A stretch of DNA of 10,552 bases from Candidatus Hodarchaeum mangrovi. GTDB lineage: Archaea; Asgardarchaeota; Heimdallarchaeia; Hodarchaeales; Hodarchaeaceae. This document shows positions 1 to 10,469 of the stretch, piece after piece (the first letter of the stretch is position 1; every line of letters begins with the position of its first letter). Below the pieces are notes generated by a model. The model was not told the DNA's origin and did not search any database. It was given only the letters and a program-made list of their open reading frames with translations. Both the position numbers and the translations under genes were made by a program. The DNA lies in contig JAEOUE010000100.1 in the NCBI GenBank assembly GCA_016839515.1, positions 1 through 10,552 on the forward strand, read 5' to 3'.

Positions 1-1813
1 ATAATTTATCAGTAATTTCTTCACGAGGAATTATATGACTGATGGCATGTCTTACCCCTTTTTTATTTAAGTGGTAAATGCCTCCTTCTTCGAATTTAGG
101 ATTCATATAGAGAGATTGCCAACCAGATGCAGGTGTTAGAACAGGGGTAATAGTAGATGCAGCTTGGATTTCATCGAAAACATTTCTTAGCATATACCAT
201 GGATCAAGGATATCAACCATTCCTAATTTCATTTCAGCGATAGCAATATCCATGCCAGCCATAATTACTTTTGCAGATGTAGGCATAGCAAACCATTTAC
301 CTTCAGAAAACTCAAAGTATCTAAGGGATGTATTTGAAACCCAGGTTTTAGTTATGTGATCCCATTGTATCCCATCAAACTTCTCAAAAGTAATTTCATT
401 TTTAGTAGCATTATATTCTTTAAAAACTACGGGACCAGCTCCAATGGGTCCGTTTAAACCACCAGGATCAGAAGAATGACCAGTATTAAATGAGTGAGTT
501 GACCAATCCGATGGTTTACAGAGCCAGAGATTTGGATCAAAATTCCCACTTTTATCAAAACCATGGTTAACTGGATCACCAAGAATATGTTCAGGGAAAA
601 TACTAAAATCTAATACATCAGTTACAAAGGAGGGAAAAATAGTAACGAAATTAAAACTGATATGTTCAAAGAAACCATCATCATCTTTATCCTCAATAAT
701 AACAGAGTAATTCCCCCGATGATTGACTTTATCATCTAAACCAAACGGGAGAATCCATTCAGCCCATAATTCATCCGAATTACTACCACTTTTTTTACTT
801 AAAGTGGGAATTAGTTTAACTTGCAGAGAAAATGCGACATCCCACCCATCGAGCTGATGACCATCATGAAAAAAGACATTATCACATAATGTAATGTTAT
901 ACTGTAGCCCATTATTAGAATAATTACCTCTTTCTGTGGCAATCCTTGGAATAACTTTTAGATATTCCGTCGTACCAAAATTGGTGGTCATCCAAGCTTC
1001 ACGATCTGTATTCATAGGTAAAACAAGGTATTTTGAAGGAGTATGTTGAACTAGACCAGCCATTGATGAACCTACACTGTATATATCATAAATATTATCA
1101 GCAAATATTGGATTAAATGGAGGTCCACAGCCAGAAACTGCAAAAGTAACAGTGGGTCGGCCCCACATTGTGATAAGAGAATCGAAGGGGAAAAATACAG
1201 GATCATAACCATAAAGGGTAGAGGAAATCGCGTGCACGTCATATGGAGTGTAAACCACAATATGTGGTAAGACATCATACCAGATCTTCTGCCATTCAAC
1301 AAGTTGCATTCCTAATTCAGAACGATTGTAATTTGTCCTTATTCTTTGGATTAAATTATTCGACTCTTCAGCGCGGTATGTCATATAATGCTTGGATGGA
1401 TCATTAGCCCAGTACATTATATTAAACCCAGCTGGGGGGATGGCAGTAGTACCATAACCCCCTTGTAATCCATCACCAAGGTGTCTTATGGGACTTCCCA
1501 CCCCCGTTCCAAGAACAATAAGATCATAACCTCCATCTTTATAAGCACCAACTTCTTCTTTAATTGAACGGGGATAAAGAGTCGGCCAACCTACATAATC
1601 TAATTCAGCTTTGATACCTATTTTAGCAAATTCTGGAACCATCATTTGTTCCCAAAGTAATCGTAATGGTCCACTTATAGGTGCTAGCATATTAACAGAG
1701 AAGAAATAGTCCTGTCCAACTTCACCATGTGGAGTGATAATTAATGGACTTATTATAAAAGAGAAGTAAAATAATAGAAAAAAGAATCGTCTACATAAAG
1801 AATAAAAGCTCAT
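1..1813 (-). CDS. ABC transporter substrate-binding protein, family 5 (DppA/OppA-like), circularly permuted and divergent; 3' end runs off the window (at least 604 aa)
   Basis: Manual minus-strand translation from ATG 1813 (in-frame TGA just upstream at 1823-1825) is open to position 1: MSFYSLCRRFFFLLFYFSFIISPLII...FFSVNMLAP...EFAKIGIKAELDYVGW...YDL...EWQKIWYDVLPHIVVY...TVTFAVSG..PPFNP...IPRIA...YNITLCDNVFFHDGHQLDGWDVAFS...GPIGAGPVVF...VDILD...LYMNPK...GVRHAISHIIPREEI. It has family-5 SBP motifs (FHDG, PIGxGP, VRxAIS), a hydrophobic N-terminal signal/anchor and a GAAGGGA RBS-like motif upstream. It is probably absent from the ORF track because it has no stop in the window. Confidence 0.9.
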   Translation of the reverse strand, partial: MSFYSLCRRFFFLLFYFSFIISPLIITPHGEVGQDYFFSVNMLAPISGPLRLLWEQMMVPEFAKIGIKAELDYVGWPTLYPRSIKEEVGAYKDGGYDLIVLGTGVGSPIRHLGDGLQGGYGTTAIPPAGFNIMYWANDPSKHYMTYRAEESNNLIQRIRTNYNRSELGMQLVEWQKIWYDVLPHIVVYTPYDVHAISSTLYGYDPVFFPFDSLITMWGRPTVTFAVSGCGPPFNPIFADNIYDIYSVGSSMAGLVQHTPSKYLVLPMNTDREAWMTTNFGTTEYLKVIPRIATERGNYSNNGLQYNITLCDNVFFHDGHQLDGWDVAFSLQVKLIPTLSKKSGSNSDELWAEWILPFGLDDKVNHRGNYSVIIEDKDDDGFFEHISFNFVTIFPSFVTDVLDFSIFPEHILGDPVNHGFDKSGNFDPNLWLCKPSDWSTHSFNTGHSSDPGGLNGPIGAGPVVFKEYNATKNEITFEKFDGIQWDHITKTWVSNTSLRYFEFSEGKWFAMPTSAKVIMAGMDIAIAEMKLGMVDILDPWYMLRNVFDEIQAASTITPVLTPASGWQSLYMNPKFEEGGIYHLNKKGVRHAISHIIPREEITDKL

Positions 1814-3037: not shown

Positions 3038-4006
3038 TTATCGTGAATCAGTGGGATAAAAACAAGCTGTCCAGTGGTTTTTCCTTATTTCCTCTAATGG
3101 AGGTTCTTCCCGTGAACATTTTTCTTGAGCATATTTACAGCGTTTTACAAATCGACAGCATTTAGGAGGATCGATGGGAGTGGGTACTTCTCCAGTTAAC
3201 AATTCTCTTTTCTTCTTTGTTCTTGGATCAGGGATTGGAACAGAAGCAATTAAAGCTTCAGCATAAGGATGTTGGGGATAATCAAAAAGATCATTAATTT
3301 CTCCTAGTTCTACAATTTGTCCGAGATACATTACACCTACCCTATTACAAACATGTCTGACTACTGAAAGATCATGTGAAATGAAGATATATGTAAGAGC
3401 AAATTCTTTCTGTAGTTTTTCAAGTAAATTTAAGACTTGTGCTCGAACTGAAACATCTAATGCTGAAACTGGTTCATCCATAATTAAAATATCAGGTTCG
3501 ACGGCTAAAGCTCTTGCGATAACTACCCTCTGTCGTTGTCCTCCAGAAAATTCATGTGGATATCTATATAAATGAAATGGGGCTAATCCAACAGTTTCCA
3601 TAAGCTGAAGAATTCGTTTTTTCTTTTTCTTCCCTTTAATTAATTTGTGAATATCAAGAGGTTCACCAATAATATCATAAACTGTCATTCTGGGATTTAA
3701 TGATGAGTATGGGTCTTGGAATATCAATTGAATTCTTCTACGCATTTGGGTTTTTTTATTTCTAAAAATATCCTTACCATCAAAAAGTATCCTCCCTGAT
3801 GTTGGAAAGAGTAGCTTTAAAATTAATTTTGCAACTGTAGTTTTTCCACACCCTGACTCTCCAACTAATCCAAATGTTTCTCCTTTATTAACAGTAAAGT
3901 TTACATTATCAACAGCATGAATAAAAGAGCCGCTTCGAGTACCAAAAATTCCCATTTGAACTGGAAATTTCTTTGTCAGATTCTCTAATCTAAGAATTTC
4001 ATTCAT
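3038..4006 (-). CDS. dppF: Dipeptide/oligopeptide ABC transporter ATP-binding subunit (DppF/OppF)
   Basis: Walker A GESGCGKT, Q-loop IFQDPYSSLNPR, signature FSGGQRQR, Walker B ILIMDEP, H-loop ISHD, C-terminal HPY domain with Cys cluster. Start re-called to ATG 4006 (MNEILRLENL) because AGAGGGA lies just upstream, overlapping the dppD stop. Confidence 0.95.
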   Translation of the reverse strand: MNEILRLENLTKKFPVQMGIFGTRSGSFIHAVDNVNFTVNKGETFGLVGESGCGKTTVAKLILKLLFPTSGRILFDGKDIFRNKKTQMRRRIQLIFQDPYSSLNPRMTVYDIIGEPLDIHKLIKGKKKKKRILQLMETVGLAPFHLYRYPHEFSGGQRQRVVIARALAVEPDILIMDEPVSALDVSVRAQVLNLLEKLQKEFALTYIFISHDLSVVRHVCNRVGVMYLGQIVELGEINDLFDYPQHPYAEALIASVPIPDPRTKKKRELLTGEVPTPIDPPKCCRFVKRCKYAQEKCSREEPPLEEIRKNHWTACFYPTDSR

Positions 4007-4016
4007 TATATTCCCT

Positions 4017-5045
4017 CTAACTATAGAGATGACACCGAACAAAATGACGAGGAGCTATCTCTAATCTTTTAGGAACCTCTTTGCTACATATATCCATTAC
4101 ATCTTTGCAGCGTGGATGGAATCTACATCCAGATGGAGGATTAATTAAATTTGGGATAGAACCTTTAATAACTTCGAGATGATCAAGCTTTCGATCTACT
4201 CTTGGTATTGAAGATAATAAATCTCGTGTATAGGGATGTGCCGGATTCACGAAACATTCTAAACAAGAGTTTTCTTCAACAATATATCCTGCATACATTA
4301 CTGCTACACGATCAGCTATTTCTGCAACAACGGCAAAATTATGTGTTATATAAAGAACAGCGGTATTATATTTCTGCTTTAATTTATCTATTAAATAAAG
4401 TACTTGAGCTTGAATTGTAACATCAAGTGCTGTTGTAGGCTCATCAGCTATGAGTAAAGATGGTCGACAAGAAAGAGCAATTGCTATCATGATTCTTTGT
4501 CGCATACCACCGGAAAATTGATGAGGAAAATCTTGTGAACGTTTTTCTGCATCAGGTATTCCTACTTCTTTCATCATTCTTATAGCTTCAGTTTTTGCTT
4601 CATTTGGATCTAATTTTTGATGAACCCTTAAATTTTCAGCAATTTGGTCAGCTACTGAATAAAGAGGATTCAAAGATGTCATTGGATCTTGAAAGATCAT
4701 TGATATATTTCCCCCACGAACTATACGCATCTCTTTATTTGAAAATTGTAATAAATCCTTAGTTTTAAATAAAATGGATCCACTGATAATTTTTGCAGGG
4801 GGAATCGGTAATAATTGTATAATAGAAAGTGCTGAAACAGTTTTTCCTGATCCTGATTCTCCAATTAAGCCTAATGTTTCTCCTTTCTTAATATCTAAGT
4901 CAATACCCTCGACGGCCTTAACTATGCCCTCCTCAGTGTAAAAATATACTTTTAAATTTCTTATCTTAACAAGAAATTCACTTTCTCTTTCGATGGTATT
5001 AACCAGATCTTTTTCTGAGAAATTTGAATCCAAATGTGATACCAA
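4017..5045 (-). CDS. dppD: Dipeptide/oligopeptide ABC transporter ATP-binding subunit (DppD/OppD)
   Basis: Walker [53 protein letters not shown] and [12 protein letters not shown] tail. Start uncertain: TTG 5045 or TTG 5033, with no clear RBS. Confidence 0.95.
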
Positions 5046-5182
5046 CGTTTAATTAGATATTCTTGTATCGGATTTTAAATTATGTATTTAATCTCTTTCT
5101 TCTATTCATCTGTATTGTTATAAAAAGAAGACAAATCTCTTTGGTTTTGTAGAAATTAAAAATAAAAGACTTATTACATTAT

Positions 5183-5257
5183 TTCAAATTAATTTGAATC
5201 TCAATTTTTAATTTTTTAATAATATTCTCACAAAAACGTTATTCAAATTCCTTTGAA
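5183..5257. promoter_or_regulatory. Pair of TTCAAA-N4-TTTGAA palindromes (5183-5198 and 5242-5257), putative transcription-factor sites
   Basis: TTCAAATTAATTTGAA (perfect 16-bp palindrome) and TTCAAATTCCTTTGAA, 59 bp apart in the dppD/dppA divergent intergenic region. Confidence 0.55.
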
Positions 5258-5413
5258 CATATGTAGAGTAAAATCTAAGCGTCTTTAATTTCAATCATCT
5301 GGTTAATGAATATTATCGCTTAATTAACGTAGAAAACACAAAATATGATTTTTTAAGGAAATTATTTTCGTTGACTTGATATAAATGTTTAAAAACGTTT
5401 CAGTGGAAGTAGC

Positions 5414-5474
5414 AACTTGTTTTTGAAAATCAGAATAATTTTCTTTTTATTGTAACTGGTTTTCGAAAATCAGA
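5414..5474. promoter_or_regulatory. Tandem 21-bp direct repeat with palindromic core, putative operator pair for dppA
   Basis: AACTTGTTTTTGAAAATCAGA (5414-5434) and AACTGGTTTTCGAAAATCAGA (5454-5474): 19/21 identical with a 40-bp period. The copy-2 core CTGGTTTTCGAAAATCAG is palindromic except for one base pair. Confidence 0.65.
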
Positions 5475-5478
5475 TTCT

Positions 5479-5484
5479 AGGAGA
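5479..5484 (+). promoter_or_regulatory. Ribosome-binding site of dppA
   Basis: AGGAGA 8 nt upstream of the TTG start at 5493. Confidence 0.7.
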
Positions 5485-5492
5485 ATTTTAAT

Positions 5493-7271
5493 TTGAATAA
5501 TACAAAATTTAAACTTCTGGTATTAACATTAATTCTAGGATTGTTCTTTGCAAGTTTACCACTCCCCGCACTTGCTGCAGAGGAATTATCACTGGAATTA
5601 TGGTATATGCCAGTAAAACGACCATATTTTCCTGACGCTAAAACAGTCGCGGAATTTATGCAAGCTGACCTTAGCAAAATAGGAATTACAACAACTCTAA
5701 AAACTTTTGATTGGAGTGAATATCTGGAAAGAACAGAAGCTGGTGAGCATGACATGTGTCTTCTTGGTTGGAGTGCTGATCTTGCGGATCCAGATAACTT
5801 TATGTATGTATTATTGCATGTGGATACAGCTACAGTAGGAAGTGCAGGTAATGTTGCTTTTTATAACAATTCTGAAGTCAACGCTTTACTTACTGAAGCT
5901 CAGCAAACCACTGATTTGGCAACAAGAACGAAAAATTATAAAGATGCTCAATGGTTAGTTCATAAGGATTCACCATGGGTTACTGTAGCTCATTCTCAAA
6001 ACCTCGCAGCATATTTGAGTAGTGTCTCTGGATTTCAAACCCATCCGACTGGTTCAGGAACTAATGTTTTTGCTAATGTTACTAAATCCGGTTCTACAAC
6101 CTTAACAATAGGCCGTGTTGGTGATTCGGATAGCCTTGACCCAGCAGAACCAACTGATGGGCAATCATTTAAAGTTATGAGACAAATATTTGATGGTTTA
6201 TACAATCTTCCAGCAGGTTCCACTATTCCTGAACCTGGACTAGCTACAAGCTATACTACATCTGCTGATCTACTTGAATGGACCTTTACTTTACGTCAGG
6301 GTGTCAAATTCCATGATGGAACCCCATTTAATGCCTCAGCTGTTGTATTTAGTTTTGAACGTGCACAAGCCTGGGCGGATAATACCTCTACATACTACAT
6401 AAATGGATGGACTCCGCCAGAAGCTGGTTATATTGACTGGATTTTTGGTGGTGTAAATGTAAACATTTCTCAAGTTGACACTTATACTGTGAAATTTACT
6501 TTAGACGCGAAATACGCACCATTCTTTAATACAATGGCAATTCCTCCTTTTGCAATAGTAAGTCCAACATATGTCAAAGCTCATAATGGAACCACGAACT
6601 TAGATCGTTTGGGTCTTAATCCAGTTGGTACTGGTCCTTATAAGTTTGTAAGCTGGGAACAAGAACAAACAATTACTCTAATAAAGAATGACGATTTCTG
6701 GGGTACCGCTACTGGGGCTAATACCCTAATATTTAAACATATTGAAGAAGAAGCTACAGCTATTATCGAAATAACTGCAGGAACACCCACAATTGATATT
6801 CTTGATGATTTTTCAGGAACTAATGTGCCAGCAATAGAAGCAGCTAGCGGAGTAAATATGTTCACTCAACCTGGAATGAATATTGGTTATTTAGCGATGA
6901 ATGCTCTCCGTTATCCATTTAATAATACTGAAGCAGTCGATGATCCAGATTTCGGAGGACAAACAACCCATGCCTCTTTAGTACGTCGAGCTTTCCATTA
7001 TGCAATTAATCGAAGTGCAATTATTGAAAACGCATACGGTGGATATGCAGTTCAGGCTAAAAATCCATTCCCACCAAGTATCTGGGGTTATAATGATACA
7101 ATAGAAGATTATAAATTTGATCCCGACCATGCCCGAGATATATTAAAATCTCTTGGGTATGCAGTTAAAGGTGGAAGACCAGCAGGACCTGATGCTATTA
7201 CTGCATTAATAACGGCCTTAGGTGGATTTATAGTTCTAACAATCCTCTTCAGTAATAGAAGGAAGAAATAA
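5493..7271 (+). CDS. dppA: Dipeptide ABC transporter substrate-binding protein (DppA-like), circularly permuted, with Sec signal peptide and C-terminal membrane anchor
   Basis: Signal peptide ending ...LPALA. DppA motifs LWYMPVKRPY, GWSADLADPDNF, TLRQGVKFHDG, NPVGTGPY, PGMNIGYL, VRRA, KNPFPPSIWGYND and YKFDPD. C-terminal hydrophobic helix followed by RRKK. Confidence 0.93.
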   Translation: MNNTKFKLLVLTLILGLFFASLPLPALAAEELSLELWYMPVKRPYFPDAKTVAEFMQADLSKIGITTTLKTFDWSEYLERTEAGEHDMCLLGWSADLADPDNFMYVLLHVDTATVGSAGNVAFYNNSEVNALLTEAQQTTDLATRTKNYKDAQWLVHKDSPWVTVAHSQNLAAYLSSVSGFQTHPTGSGTNVFANVTKSGSTTLTIGRVGDSDSLDPAEPTDGQSFKVMRQIFDGLYNLPAGSTIPEPGLATSYTTSADLLEWTFTLRQGVKFHDGTPFNASAVVFSFERAQAWADNTSTYYINGWTPPEAGYIDWIFGGVNVNISQVDTYTVKFTLDAKYAPFFNTMAIPPFAIVSPTYVKAHNGTTNLDRLGLNPVGTGPYKFVSWEQEQTITLIKNDDFWGTATGANTLIFKHIEEEATAIIEITAGTPTIDILDDFSGTNVPAIEAASGVNMFTQPGMNIGYLAMNALRYPFNNTEAVDDPDFGGQTTHASLVRRAFHYAINRSAIIENAYGGYAVQAKNPFPPSIWGYNDTIEDYKFDPDHARDILKSLGYAVKGGRPAGPDAITALITALGGFIVLTILFSNRRKK

Positions 7272-7345: not shown

Positions 7346-8416
7346 TTAAGTTTCGTAGGTTAAAATAAAACGTTCTACCTGTTTAATGGATTGTATTCGG
7401 ATAAAATGTTTAACGAGGAGATAAAATTTACTGATAAATGCTAATATAAAAAAAGTAATAAAATAATACTTGAATTCTGTATAGATAGACAGAAGCCATA
7501 TGTTATTAAATGATACAATAGAAAGAAATGAGTTAATCAATCCCCAAAAAGCTAAGGCAATAAAACTATCTGGATTTTCCCAAAGAAAATTATAATGAAC
7601 CAAATTAAAGAAAGAAATGAGGCCAGTTTCTAAAATCACGAAAATACCTATAGGGAATGCGAGAATTAAAATTGCAGGAATATTAACGCTAAAATTCTGT
7701 TTAATTCTGATCTGTTTTACGAATGCAATCAAATGATTCTCCGAGGTTTGATATAATTCACCTATTAGGATAAATGGTAAAAAAAGTTCAACAAAAACAA
7801 TGATATTAACTATCATAGGAAGAATTACCTGAAGGAGTAGAGGGAAAATAATCATTATTACCACAGGATAATTTAATGATCCTTCCTTGAATGAATCAAA
7901 GGCATTTGAAAGAATTGAATGTTGTTTATCAGAGAATCGAAGGATTAATTTTTCTTTCAAAATCACTTGTTTTATAAAAATAAGAAAAAAGAACAGAATT
8001 AGAAAATAAAAATAGCTAAATAATTCAAAGAAATCTAAATTTTCAAATATTTGAACTAAATTTTGAAGAGAAATTCCTTTCAAAATGAAAATAACTGCTT
8101 GATCACCATAAGCGATCATTAATACAAATAAGGTGAATCCCAATCCTGTAAGAATTGATATCAGTTTTATCAGTTGAATTTGGAAAATTTCTTTCCTTTT
8201 TATTGTTGGAGATAGGAGAAAGTAAATAAAAAATAGTAAAATGGCTATAAAATATAAGAAATAGAATGAAATCCAATTAGAAGTAATAAAGAAGATATAA
8301 AAAAAGATTATGAGGATTATGATACTAGAAAAGACGATGGTCATTTCAATGATTTTAAATTTCACCGAATTTTTCTGAACCTCTGGGACTATGGTTTCGG
8401 AGTGTTGATTTGCCAT
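7346..8416 (-). CDS. Hypothetical multi-pass membrane protein (roughly 8-9 hydrophobic segments by eye)
   Basis: 356-codon open frame despite very AT-rich DNA. F/I/L-rich segments. ATG preceded by AAGGTGAT. Starts 19 nt after the dppC stop. No family motif recognised. Confidence 0.75.
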   Translation of the reverse strand: MANQHSETIVPEVQKNSVKFKIIEMTIVFSSIIILIIFFYIFFITSNWISFYFLYFIAILLFFIYFLLSPTIKRKEIFQIQLIKLISILTGLGFTLFVLMIAYGDQAVIFILKGISLQNLVQIFENLDFFELFSYFYFLILFFFLIFIKQVILKEKLILRFSDKQHSILSNAFDSFKEGSLNYPVVIMIIFPLLLQVILPMIVNIIVFVELFLPFILIGELYQTSENHLIAFVKQIRIKQNFSVNIPAILILAFPIGIFVILETGLISFFNLVHYNFLWENPDSFIALAFWGLINSFLSIVSFNNIWLLSIYTEFKYYFITFFILAFISKFYLLVKHFIRIQSIKQVERFILTYET

Positions 8417-8435: not shown

Positions 8436-9380
8436 TTACTTTTTAAATCTAGGATCAAATGCTTCTCGTAAACCATCGCCTACTAAATTAAATGATATTA
8501 CTGTTAATAGAATTGCCATTCCAGGGAAAAAAGTTAAGTGAGGTGCAGCAGCAAAAAATTTCCTTCCATCTCCAATCATGGAACCCCACTCAGCGGTTGG
8601 AGCTTGAGCGCCTAATCCAAGAAAACTTAACGCAGCAACTTCCAAAATAGCAGTTCCTACTCCTAAAGTAGAATAGACAATTAATACACCAAACACATTT
8701 GGAAGAATGTGTTGGGTTAAAATCCGTGGGGTTTTAGCTCCTAGAACCTTTGCTGCTTCAACATACATCAATTCACGTTCAACAAAAGTTTGACCTCTTA
8801 CAATTCGTGCATAATAGGGGATATAAACAATGCCCACAGCGAGCATTGCATTTTCTAAACTGCTTCCCATTAATGATAATATCGCTAAAGCTAGTAATAT
8901 TGCTGGAAAAGCCAGTAACATCTCTAAACCCATTGAAATAATAGAATCAATCCAACTACCATAATATCCTGCTAGTAATCCAATTAATGTTCCCACTGAT
9001 AATGAAACAAAGACAGCTATAAAGCCTACTGTAATGGAAATACGAGCACCATAAATAATACGAACAAAAATATCACGTCCAACGTTATCTGTTCCAAAAA
9101 AATGCTTTGGTGATGGAGTTTGAAAACTTCTTGACACAGGATCGTTTGGGCCATAAGGAAAGATAGGAATGTTAAAAAAATTGAATAACATTTCATCGAG
9201 AAGTGATATAATTGCTAAAATAATAAAGAAACCTAAAATGCCTAATCCAACAAGTGCTGCTTGATTACGTCGAAATCTCTTGAAGATTACACTCCATGTT
9301 GTCGCTCCCGAAATTTCATCTAGTTTACTATCTGATTCATCTTCAAATTTCCCAATTTTAGCAACCTTAAGACTTCTCAT
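8436..9380 (-). CDS. dppC: Dipeptide/oligopeptide ABC transporter permease (DppC/OppC)
   Basis: N-terminal RFRRNQAAL, HFFGTDNVGRDIF, GARISITVG, EAA loop YVEAAKVLGA, HILPN, LSFLGLG, EWG and NLVGDGLREAFDPR. Starts 3 nt after the dppB stop. Confidence 0.95.
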   Translation of the reverse strand: MRSLKVAKIGKFEDESDSKLDEISGATTWSVIFKRFRRNQAALVGLGILGFFIILAIISLLDEMLFNFFNIPIFPYGPNDPVSRSFQTPSPKHFFGTDNVGRDIFVRIIYGARISITVGFIAVFVSLSVGTLIGLLAGYYGSWIDSIISMGLEMLLAFPAILLALAILSLMGSSLENAMLAVGIVYIPYYARIVRGQTFVERELMYVEAAKVLGAKTPRILTQHILPNVFGVLIVYSTLGVGTAILEVAALSFLGLGAQAPTAEWGSMIGDGRKFFAAAPHLTFFPGMAILLTVISFNLVGDGLREAFDPRFKK

Positions 9381-9383
9381 TGA

Positions 9384-10469
9384 TTAATCCCTCTTAAAAT
9401 ACCGTACTCTCGGATCCAAATAGGCATAGATAATGTCTGTTGCCATATTTGTAACGACAAATATGAAGGCACTAATCATGACGAATCCCATAATAACTGG
9501 GAAATCTCTATCTTGAATACTATTCCAAATATATCCTCCTACCCCTGGCCAAGAAAAAATAGTTTCAGTTAAAACTGCTCCTGCTAACAGTGCTCCAAAA
9601 TTTAAGCCAATTACTGTAATAGTTGGAATCATCGCATTTTTTGTAACATGTTTTACTATTACTAACCTTTCTTTAAGACCCTTTGAGCGAGCTGTTCTAA
9701 CATAATCTTTTCCAAGTTCCTCAAGCATACTAGATCGCATCATTCTAGCAATTACAGCTAAGGGAATAGTTGCTAATGCCAAAGAAGGTAAAACAAGATG
9801 GTTTGTTGCTGAAAGGAAATACTCCCAGTTACCTTCCATTATTCCTACTACAAAAGAATCAATAAGATAAAAATTTGTATATTTCGGAAGTGAAGCACTT
9901 AAATGGGAATCTATTCTATGTGTTGCTTCAAACCATCCGAGATTGTTAAAAAATACGCTTTGCAGCATTAATCCTAACCAATAAATTGGCATACTAACCC
10001 CCAATAATGCAATTATCATCGTAAGGTAATCTATTCGTGAGTGTTGTTTATAGGCTGATAATATTCCAATAGGAATTCCTGCAATTGTTGCAAGTAATAT
10101 TGATACTAATGTTAATTCAATCGTTGCAGGGAATCGAATTCCTAACTCATAAGCAACTGGAGTTGAAGAAATCATTGAAATTCCCAAATCAAATTCAAAA
10201 AGTAATTTTTGCATAAAAATTAAATATTGCTCCCAAGCTGGCTTGTCTAAACCCCATTTTTGTCTAATTAATTCGAGTTTTTCAGGCCTAGGATCTTTTC
10301 CTGCTAATGTATTTGCAACATCCCCTGGAAGTAACCGGAATAGGATAAAAACAATAGTTGCCACCCCAATTAAAACTGGTATCGCCCTAAGGATACGTTT
10401 TATTGCAAATTTTAAAAAGTCAGTAGTTGTTTCAGTGGAGGATTCAATTTTTTCAGACATATTAACCAT
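9384..10469 (-). CDS. dppB: Dipeptide/oligopeptide ABC transporter permease (DppB/OppB)
   Basis: LPGD, WGLDKP, RFPATIEL, GVSMPIYWLG, HLVLP, EAA loop DYVRTARSKGL, ETIFSWPGVG, RDFPV and DIIYAYLDPRVR. The start could be ATG 10469 or ATG 10460. Confidence 0.95.
   Translation of the reverse strand: MVNMSEKIESSTETTTDFLKFAIKRILRAIPVLIGVATIVFILFRLLPGDVANTLAGKDPRPEKLELIRQKWGLDKPAWEQYLIFMQKLLFEFDLGISMISSTPVAYELGIRFPATIELTLVSILLATIAGIPIGILSAYKQHSRIDYLTMIIALLGVSMPIYWLGLMLQSVFFNNLGWFEATHRIDSHLSASLPKYTNFYLIDSFVVGIMEGNWEYFLSATNHLVLPSLALATIPLAVIARMMRSSMLEELGKDYVRTARSKGLKERLVIVKHVTKNAMIPTITVIGLNFGALLAGAVLTETIFSWPGVGGYIWNSIQDRDFPVIMGFVMISAFIFVVTNMATDIIYAYLDPRVRYFKRD

Follow-up and report, generated by a model that had tools for sequence, protein, structure and literature searches.

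A Circularly Permuted, Probably Surface-Tethered DppA-like Binding Protein Beside a DppBCDF-Type Importer in a Hodarchaeales Archaeon

Contig JAEOUE010000100.1 of Candidatus Hodarchaeum mangrovi was analysed over its whole length of 10,552 nucleotides (nt), hereafter the window, and the open reading frame (ORF) at positions 5493-7271 of its plus strand codes, from a TTG start, for a protein of 592 amino acids (aa) that alignments, Pfam and profile order confirm as a true circular permutation of a DppA-like family-5 substrate-binding protein, far beyond what chance could produce. Very probably, the protein is a working, surface-tethered peptide receptor of the neighbouring DppBCDF-type importer, with the fold and the ligand clamp kept, a weak sorting signal at the new C-terminus, and an origin by fusion. 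The gene is not unique in its permutation, and the weight of the finding lies in the recurrent pattern more than in the single gene.

Chain Order of the Permuted Binding Protein

Two blocks of the protein match E. coli DppA (PDB chain 8z1y_F, in the numbering of the 535-aa precursor) in phmmer searches against the PDB, and they stand in swapped order along the chain. Specifically, residues 32-188 (nt 5586-6056) align to DppA 372-526, the C-terminal third of the canonical protein, with 104.7 bits and an independent E-value (i-E) of 4.9e-29, the first gap in this alignment appearing only at DppA ~460, and residues 202-556 (nt 6096-7160) align to DppA 29-368, the N-terminal two-thirds, with 147.8 bits and an i-E of 4.5e-42. 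The same two-block pattern is obtained against H. pylori DppA (6ofq_A), GbpA (3m8u_A), Yersinia DppA, and other PDB entries, and by BLASTP the canonical relative P0050 aligns through its residues 384-536 to residues 36-188 of the protein. The swapped DppA order, which the original prediction had read from the letters of the window, is thus borne out.

The Pfam family SBP_bac_5 (PF00496) is matched with 297.9 bits against a cut-off of 32.4 (E 1.5e-88), and the match is split, as the original prediction had anticipated, into two stretches whose order on the DNA is reversed: profile positions 297-363 (nt 5625-5822) lie upstream of positions 2-283 (nt 6228-7175) and are not collinear with them. 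Moreover, a custom profile of the canonical order, built from 91 canonical relatives, matches residues 37-200 with its positions 365-526 and then residues 202-561 with its positions 29-361 (numbered in the stop-to-stop frame). Each position of this profile is represented once, with none missing and none duplicated, and therefore a complete fold is encoded once and cut between profile positions 361 and 365.

The native termini meet at a linker of residues 197-203 (TKSGSTT; nt 6081-6101), within which the KSGS that had been placed at nt 6084-6095 is confirmed in the translation as residues 198-201. The linker is variable, in that the invariant columns of a 26-sequence alignment of the clade end at V196 and resume at L204, R208, and D211. 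The alignments, the profile order, the clade alignment, and the AlphaFold2 model described below support the view that the native ends are joined via this short variable stretch and that the chain has been opened anew behind the '...LGY' helix, as had also been proposed. As we read it, the chain would run from a signal peptide (approximately residues 1-28, ending ...PALAA; nt 5493-5576), recognised from the sequence and from a modelled helix at residues 3-21 with low confidence at 22-27 and a predicted cleavage site, through the canonical last third, a linker of ~7 residues, and the canonical first two-thirds, to an end in the loop after '...LGY'.

Conservation and Authenticity of the Junction

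A word-indexed search returns 29 related clusters at 52-93% identity, those bearing names being metagenome-assembled genomes (MAGs) of Hodarchaeales or Heimdallarchaeota, and below them the similarity falls sharply to canonical, mostly bacterial proteins at ~40% identity over only ~60% of the query. Compared with canonical P0050 by BLASTP, 29 of the 30 clade members give two matching segments in the same swapped order, and the exception (P0028) is an N-truncated fragment. Among 400 genomes of the phylum, G066, G061, G077, and G068 contain full-length collinear orthologs (55-64% identity) and G059 contains fragments; all five genomes belong to the window's genus, of which 21 other genomes were examined. 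The gene order is kept in G066, a single contig of 4.9 Mb, where dppF and dppD on one strand are followed by the binding-protein gene on the opposite one and by the genes of a membrane protein, dppC, and dppB; identities between the two genomes amount to 79% for dppF, 82% for dppD, 64.5% for the binding protein, 45% for the membrane protein, 78% for dppC, and 77% for dppB.

A near-identical stretch turns up in public soil and marine-sediment data, in 20 runs belonging to 7 studies. The junction (nt 6080-6100), at which the original prediction had advised looking for a breakpoint, contains none: it is spanned with 0 differences, joints, or indels by the DNA contigs X3 (5987-6202) and X6 (6016-6548), which come from two studies, and likewise by the RNA-library contig X20 (6014-6178), so that contigs of three studies bridge it. 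The chance that two partial or tandem binding-protein genes were falsely joined in one frame, through assembly or gene calling, is accordingly close to nil. Such an artefact might be suspected because the window is the whole 10.5-kb contig of a fragmented MAG of 348 contigs and because tandem binding-protein genes and fusions exist in the phylum; however, the architecture is shared by 29 of 30 relatives from independent assemblies and by the single-contig genome G066, the bridging contigs carry no differences, each profile position occurs exactly once, and the invariant residues of the clade run through both blocks. Misassembly is refuted, as far as sequence data can refute it, by the relatives, the orthologs, the G066 synteny, and the junction-bridging contigs.

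Recurrence of Permutation across the Family

The window's own genome (G000) contains nine family-5 ORFs. Canonical order is kept in three of them (C202, C86, C108), the window gene, C119, and C331 are clearly permuted at the break of the window gene, and contig ends truncate both the gene at 2-1813 of the window and its paralog C143, which are probably permuted at the same break. C20:607-2556 (-) is opened elsewhere, with profile positions 229-437 preceding 30-224, and ends in a Thr/Pro-rich linker, a transmembrane helix, and RRRRK. A further break, near profile position 293-297, is found in L013 (G078) and L014 (G074), the former showing the full circle (profile 294-516, 25-189, 183-293). Moreover, L009 (G262), L011 (G257), and L008 (G368) are in-frame tandem fusions of at least two complete family-5 domains, P0125, P0156, P0160, P0176, P0237, and P0268 are further tandem proteins, and Asgard genomes and metagenomes contain giant tandem proteins of 2 to at least 4 complete domains, reaching 4308 aa, which may be a source of permuted forms.

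When 1.84 billion cluster representatives were searched exhaustively with phmmer, 54,349 matched at E ≤ 1e-3, and the best 150 of these were classed by the custom profile. Among these best 150 representatives, 24 are permuted, at no fewer than 6 break points: 14 are opened near the break of the window gene, 6 near position 147, and one each near 195, 274, 292, and 459; tandem proteins of 2-4 domains are also present among the 150. One protein with the same break as the window gene (P0180) is labelled as a Planctomycetes MAG, and if the binning is right the break is not confined to archaea.

The history of the break was examined in two trees. The second has 65 rows, made up of 36 canonical proteins (every third of those of 480-620 aa), the permuted proteins of at least 500 aa, and 8 clade members, the labels permuted and canonical having been fixed before it was built. 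Here, the Hodarchaeales clade and P0122, P0130, P0140, and P0181, which have the same break, form a fully supported, all-permuted clade of 12 rows, and seven more rows with this break are interspersed with canonical ones, several of the seven pairing with a canonical row under good support. The minimum number of order changes is 11, at least 6 of them forced by the starred branches, and forcing all 19 same-break rows into one clade costs 443.5 log-likelihood units (p = 2e-55 in the approximately unbiased, AU, test). A single origin of this break is rejected by the AU test, and within the subfamily this loop, like several others, has been reopened time and again. The first tree (64 rows, C108 and C331 having been dropped as too gappy) gives the same picture for the phylum; in it, canonical C202:16384-18045 (-) and permuted L015 (G075), which has over 1170 aa and a long extension at its C-terminus, are fully supported sisters, a pairing that suggests a separate, recent permutation within the genus.

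Fold Model and Ligand-Contacting Residues

An AlphaFold2 model computed from the 26-sequence clade alignment has a mean predicted local distance difference test (pLDDT) of 81.6 and a predicted template modelling (pTM) score of 0.77; in it, the signal peptide is a helix (3-21), the body is modelled confidently, residues 563-567 are disordered, and the chain ends in a helix (568-591). Searched with Foldseek, it retrieves 169 PDB chains at E ≤ 1e-3. The top matches listed are without exception cluster C binding proteins, including GbpA 3m8u (root-mean-square deviation of 2.9 Å over 365 columns) and 1dpp_A (3.5 Å over 371 columns), with ~28-32% identity to E. coli DppA and its relatives.

According to work on E. 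coli DppA (PMC12136057), R383 binds the carboxyl end of the dipeptide and D436 its amino end, the R383D+D436R double mutant loses binding, and in the complex both residues contact the scoop loop of DppB; D436 corresponds to D408 in mature numbering (PMC3295651). The equivalents in the window protein are predicted, from an ungapped alignment in which the DppA chain position equals the query position + 340, to be R43 (nt 5619-5621) and D96 (nt 5778-5780), and D96 is invariant in all 26 clade sequences. The Arg and the Asp that clamp the dipeptide are kept, as judged by this alignment. The score against the NCBIfam DppA equivalog NF043070 is 271.1 bits, far under the cut-off of 1005.

The C-Terminal Anchor

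The tail of the protein runs from LGY (554-556) through seven residues to AGPD (564-567), a hydrophobic stretch (568-586), and RRKK (589-592). Residues 557-567 (nt 7161-7193) form a short tether that includes, by comparison of the clade tails, an x-G-[FP]-[DE] motif, here the AGPD, whose G565 is nearly invariant and which falls in the part of the model with pLDDT <50 (563-567); the hydrophobic helix and the basic tail follow at nt 7194-7268. The hydrophobic stretch and the RRKK that had been noticed close to the new C-terminus are indeed present, 11 residues past Y556, and are modelled as the helix 568-591. Their earlier description as a plain transmembrane helix needs revision, given that motif, hydrophobic helix, and basic tail together look like an archaeosortase-type sorting signal.

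Specifically, 27 of the 28 complete C-termini of the clade combine x-G-[FPLV]-[DE] with a hydrophobic run of ~20 residues and, after it, a K/R cluster, the 28th (P0022) having TPGF followed by a hydrophobic stretch and a basic tail. The spacer from LG[YFI] to the motif measures 5-9 residues in 25 of the 27 tails of this form; among the clade tails, P0025 has an S/T-rich linker of ~37 residues and P0022 an insert of ~300 residues. Motif, hydrophobic stretch, and basic tail are the tripartite form of exosortase/archaeosortase signals, and the anchor is therefore probably a degenerate or weak sorting signal of the PGF/Heimdall-CTERM type rather than a plain transmembrane helix, as far as tail comparison can tell. 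The genome codes for a protein of the exosortase/archaeosortase family (C169:~8933-9755) that matches PF09721 with 33.4 bits against a cut-off of 25.7 and TIGR04178 with 46.5 bits against a cut-off of 23. In haloarchaea, substrates of ArtA with a PGF motif are described as cleaved and lipid-anchored (PMC6098224). The term 'Heimdall-CTERM' was not found in the full texts searched, and neither was the processing of a sorting signal in any Asgard archaeon.

Many predicted surface proteins of G000 end in (T/I)PGF(E/D), a hydrophobic helix, and a K/R cluster; C77:5026-6678, C148:33712-35022, C260:690-2291, and C282:3482-5833 are examples of such tails. By a rough regular-expression count, 162 of the 3033 ORFs of at least 150 aa in the genome have a hydrophobic and basic tail, and 19 of these contain PGF.

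Proposed Function and Origin

Four transporter genes, named from domain matches and synteny, surround the binding-protein gene. Divergent from it lies the gene of a DppD-type ATPase (ABC_tran and oligo_HPY; 4017-5045, minus strand), with that of a DppF-type ATPase of the same domain composition at 3038-4042 (minus strand), and on the other side are the genes of a DppC-type permease (OppC_N and BPD_transp_1; 8436-9380, minus strand) and of a DppB-type permease (BPD_transp_1_N and BPD_transp_1; 9384-10469, minus strand). Since Dpp/Opp-type permeases and oligo_HPY ATPases adjoin and R43 and D96 are kept, the protein is read as the peptide receptor of this importer. It would probably take dipeptides for the DppBCDF-type ABC importer of this Hodarchaeales (Asgard) archaeon, and with the fold and R43/D96 kept, binding and delivery should proceed as in DppA. 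The protein would be held on the membrane by its transmembrane helix or by a C-terminal lipid after archaeosortase processing. The permutation probably originated in an in-frame tandem duplication, or in the fusion of two binding-protein genes, after which the outer parts were lost, and the short junction and the tandem fusions among the relatives fit this route. The N-terminal extension of P0022 was considered as a relic of a duplicated copy and rejected, its alignment to the canonical pre-break helix being too weak.

It is improbable that the permuted protein has left peptide import and serves as a sensor, an adhesin, or a receptor of another ligand beside a Dpp-type operon. Its gene lies on the strand opposite to all four transporter genes, but this inverted position is conserved together with the operon in G066. 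The protein also evolves faster than its neighbours (64.5% versus 77-82% identity to G066), its equivalog score is far under the cut-off, and the opposite end of the contig carries another permuted binding-protein gene, all of which would suit a departure from import; conversely, R43 and D96, the equivalents of the two DppA residues in contact with the peptide ends and the DppB scoop loop, are kept, and the closest canonical relatives are DppA-like.

Several points weigh against the reading of the protein as a peptide receptor with a sorting signal and a fusion origin. Peptide binding, transport, anchor processing, and lipidation are all inferred, and the substrate may differ from that of DppA, given the equivalog score. 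The Foldseek alignments depend on sequence order and cover 365-390 columns, or about two-thirds of the targets, with template modelling scores of 0.47-0.60, because an aligner of this kind can use the larger block only; the modelled placement of the N-terminal block in the fold is thus taken from the global confidence of AlphaFold2 alone. As to the anchor, the motif of the window protein is AGPD and not PGF, the Heimdall-CTERM model (NF045529) is matched by 8 of 26 clade members, all below the cut-off (the best with 17.3 versus 24 bits), and the window protein (P0001) has no match to it at E ≤ 1. As to the origin, no tandem fusion was found as a direct sister of the clade, which leaves the proposed route only plausible, and the two trees come from quick searches and contain some long branches. 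Lastly, the RNA-library contigs X19 and X20 cover parts of the gene and do not prove its transcription.

Position of the Tether

Through the permutation, the anchor shifts away from the native termini and onto a loop of what we take to be domain III of DppA. The original prediction had also seen in this shift the purpose of the permutation, namely to bring the receptor close to the membrane and the permease; the displacement of the tether point to another part of the fold stands, while membrane proximity as its purpose is not supported as stated, given a canonical protein with the same short anchor, long linkers in P0025 and P0022, the same break in lipoproteins, and an anchor that resembles a sorting signal more than a plain transmembrane helix. 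Specifically, the canonical-order paralog C202 of the same genome has a PGFD anchor ~8 residues past its native C-terminus, and proteins that have no C-terminal anchor but an N-terminal lipobox cysteine (P0147, P0163, P0192, P0206, P0236) show this break independently and simply stop after '...AGY'.

It is doubtful, then, that the permutation was selected to hold the receptor near the permease and correctly oriented on it by means of a short linker. The spacing of just 5-9 residues between LG[YFI] and the motif in 25 of 27 clade tails, the presence of a C-terminal anchor on every member of the 12-row Heimdall-type clade, and the repeated opening of the same loop speak for such an adaptive relocation, and a preferred position would also fit the independent lipoprotein versions, which place a lipid anchor at the same site via the new N-terminus. 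However, canonical C202 combines the same anchor with a similarly short linker, P0025 and P0022 have long ones, other permuted relatives in the phylum (L005, L013, C20) carry T/S-rich linkers of ~25-60 residues, the lipoprotein versions have long N-terminal linkers (e.g., P0147), and the existence of at least 5 other break points means that no single site is preferred. The repeated opening of the same and of other loops indicates instead that the tether moved because the chain was permuted, and neither a selective value of this shift nor the adaptive story is proven. As a tentative and rather unlikely extension, the family-5 binding proteins could be viewed as a natural permutant series in which the same loop was reopened independently many times in archaea and bacteria, carrying the tether (an N-terminal lipid or a C-terminal sorting signal) along each time, with selection acting on the position of the receptor relative to its permease and with the giant fusions of Asgard archaea as raw material.

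Comparison with Known Systems and Significance

The window protein shares with E. coli DppA and its relatives (1DPP/1DPE, 8Z1Y/8Z1Z, 6OFQ, 3M8U) all the segments of the fold, the equivalents of R383 and D436, and Dpp-type neighbours. Unlike E. coli DppA, its order is rotated, with the break after precursor residue ~368 and the native termini joined, it is anchored at the new C-terminus and not free in the periplasm, and it scores below the equivalog cut-off. Opp/Dpp binding proteins of the Sulfolobus type have a C-terminal transmembrane segment after a long Ser/Thr-rich linker and the canonical order. They resemble the window protein in combining an N-terminal signal peptide with a C-terminal membrane anchor, whereas the window protein is permuted and has a tether of 11 residues. 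With the substrates of PGF-CTERM/archaeosortase A of haloarchaea (PMC6098224) and with Heimdall-CTERM, it has in common the tripartite tail, in a genome with an archaeosortase-family gene and many PGF[DE] tails; unlike these substrates and the Heimdall-CTERM model, its motif is degenerate (AGPD) and the model gives no match.

The nearest precedent is TpMglB-2 of Treponema pallidum (Tp0684, 'Cluster Bc'), likewise a natural, conserved, permuted ABC binding protein, which still binds its ligand and whose homologs are, for its authors, probably tethered (PMC4990184). It differs in belonging to cluster B, in binding sugar, and in having another break, and its permuted segment is reported (PMC4990184) to be poorly similar to the canonical one, whereas the blocks of the window protein align at E 1e-29 to 1e-42. 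In the full texts searched, which exclude subscription-only papers and supplements, no natural permuted protein of family 5 or cluster C is described, the permuted proteins reported being engineered permutants and TpMglB-2; the original prediction, which knew of no description of this architecture, agrees with these searches.

Few bacterial receptors have been studied as well as the cluster C binding proteins, which also serve widely as scaffolds for biosensors. To our knowledge, their chain order has been treated as fixed so far. The permutant and its many independent siblings, opened at the same and at other breaks, would show at which loops the fold can accommodate new termini, and they offer a way to test how far the position of the tether matters for delivery to the permease. 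Moreover, split or truncated SBP_bac_5 matches may be whole proteins, which is a warning for annotation, and binding proteins are added to the likely clients of the uncharacterised C-terminal sorting system of Asgard archaea.

Other Features of the Window

The divergent dppD and binding-protein genes are separated by an intergenic region of 447 bp (5046-5492), the presumed site of both promoters. Between dppC and the binding-protein gene, a polytopic membrane protein of 356 aa is encoded (7346-8416, minus strand), for which no match is found in Pfam or NCBIfam.

Besides the gene at 5493-7271, the window has a family-5 binding-protein gene at 2-1813 (minus strand), where the contig end truncates it, and this second gene seems to be permuted as well. 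In its product, residues 135-204 match the end of the Opp4A profile (471-542 of 556), and the start of the profile is matched only from residue ~281-286; phmmer finds no PDB match for this protein, and the permuted order is known only from these partial NCBIfam and Pfam matches. Its paralogs in the genome are C143, with 65% identity, and C331, with 42% identity, the latter a full-length protein of 713 aa that carries a PGFE anchor.

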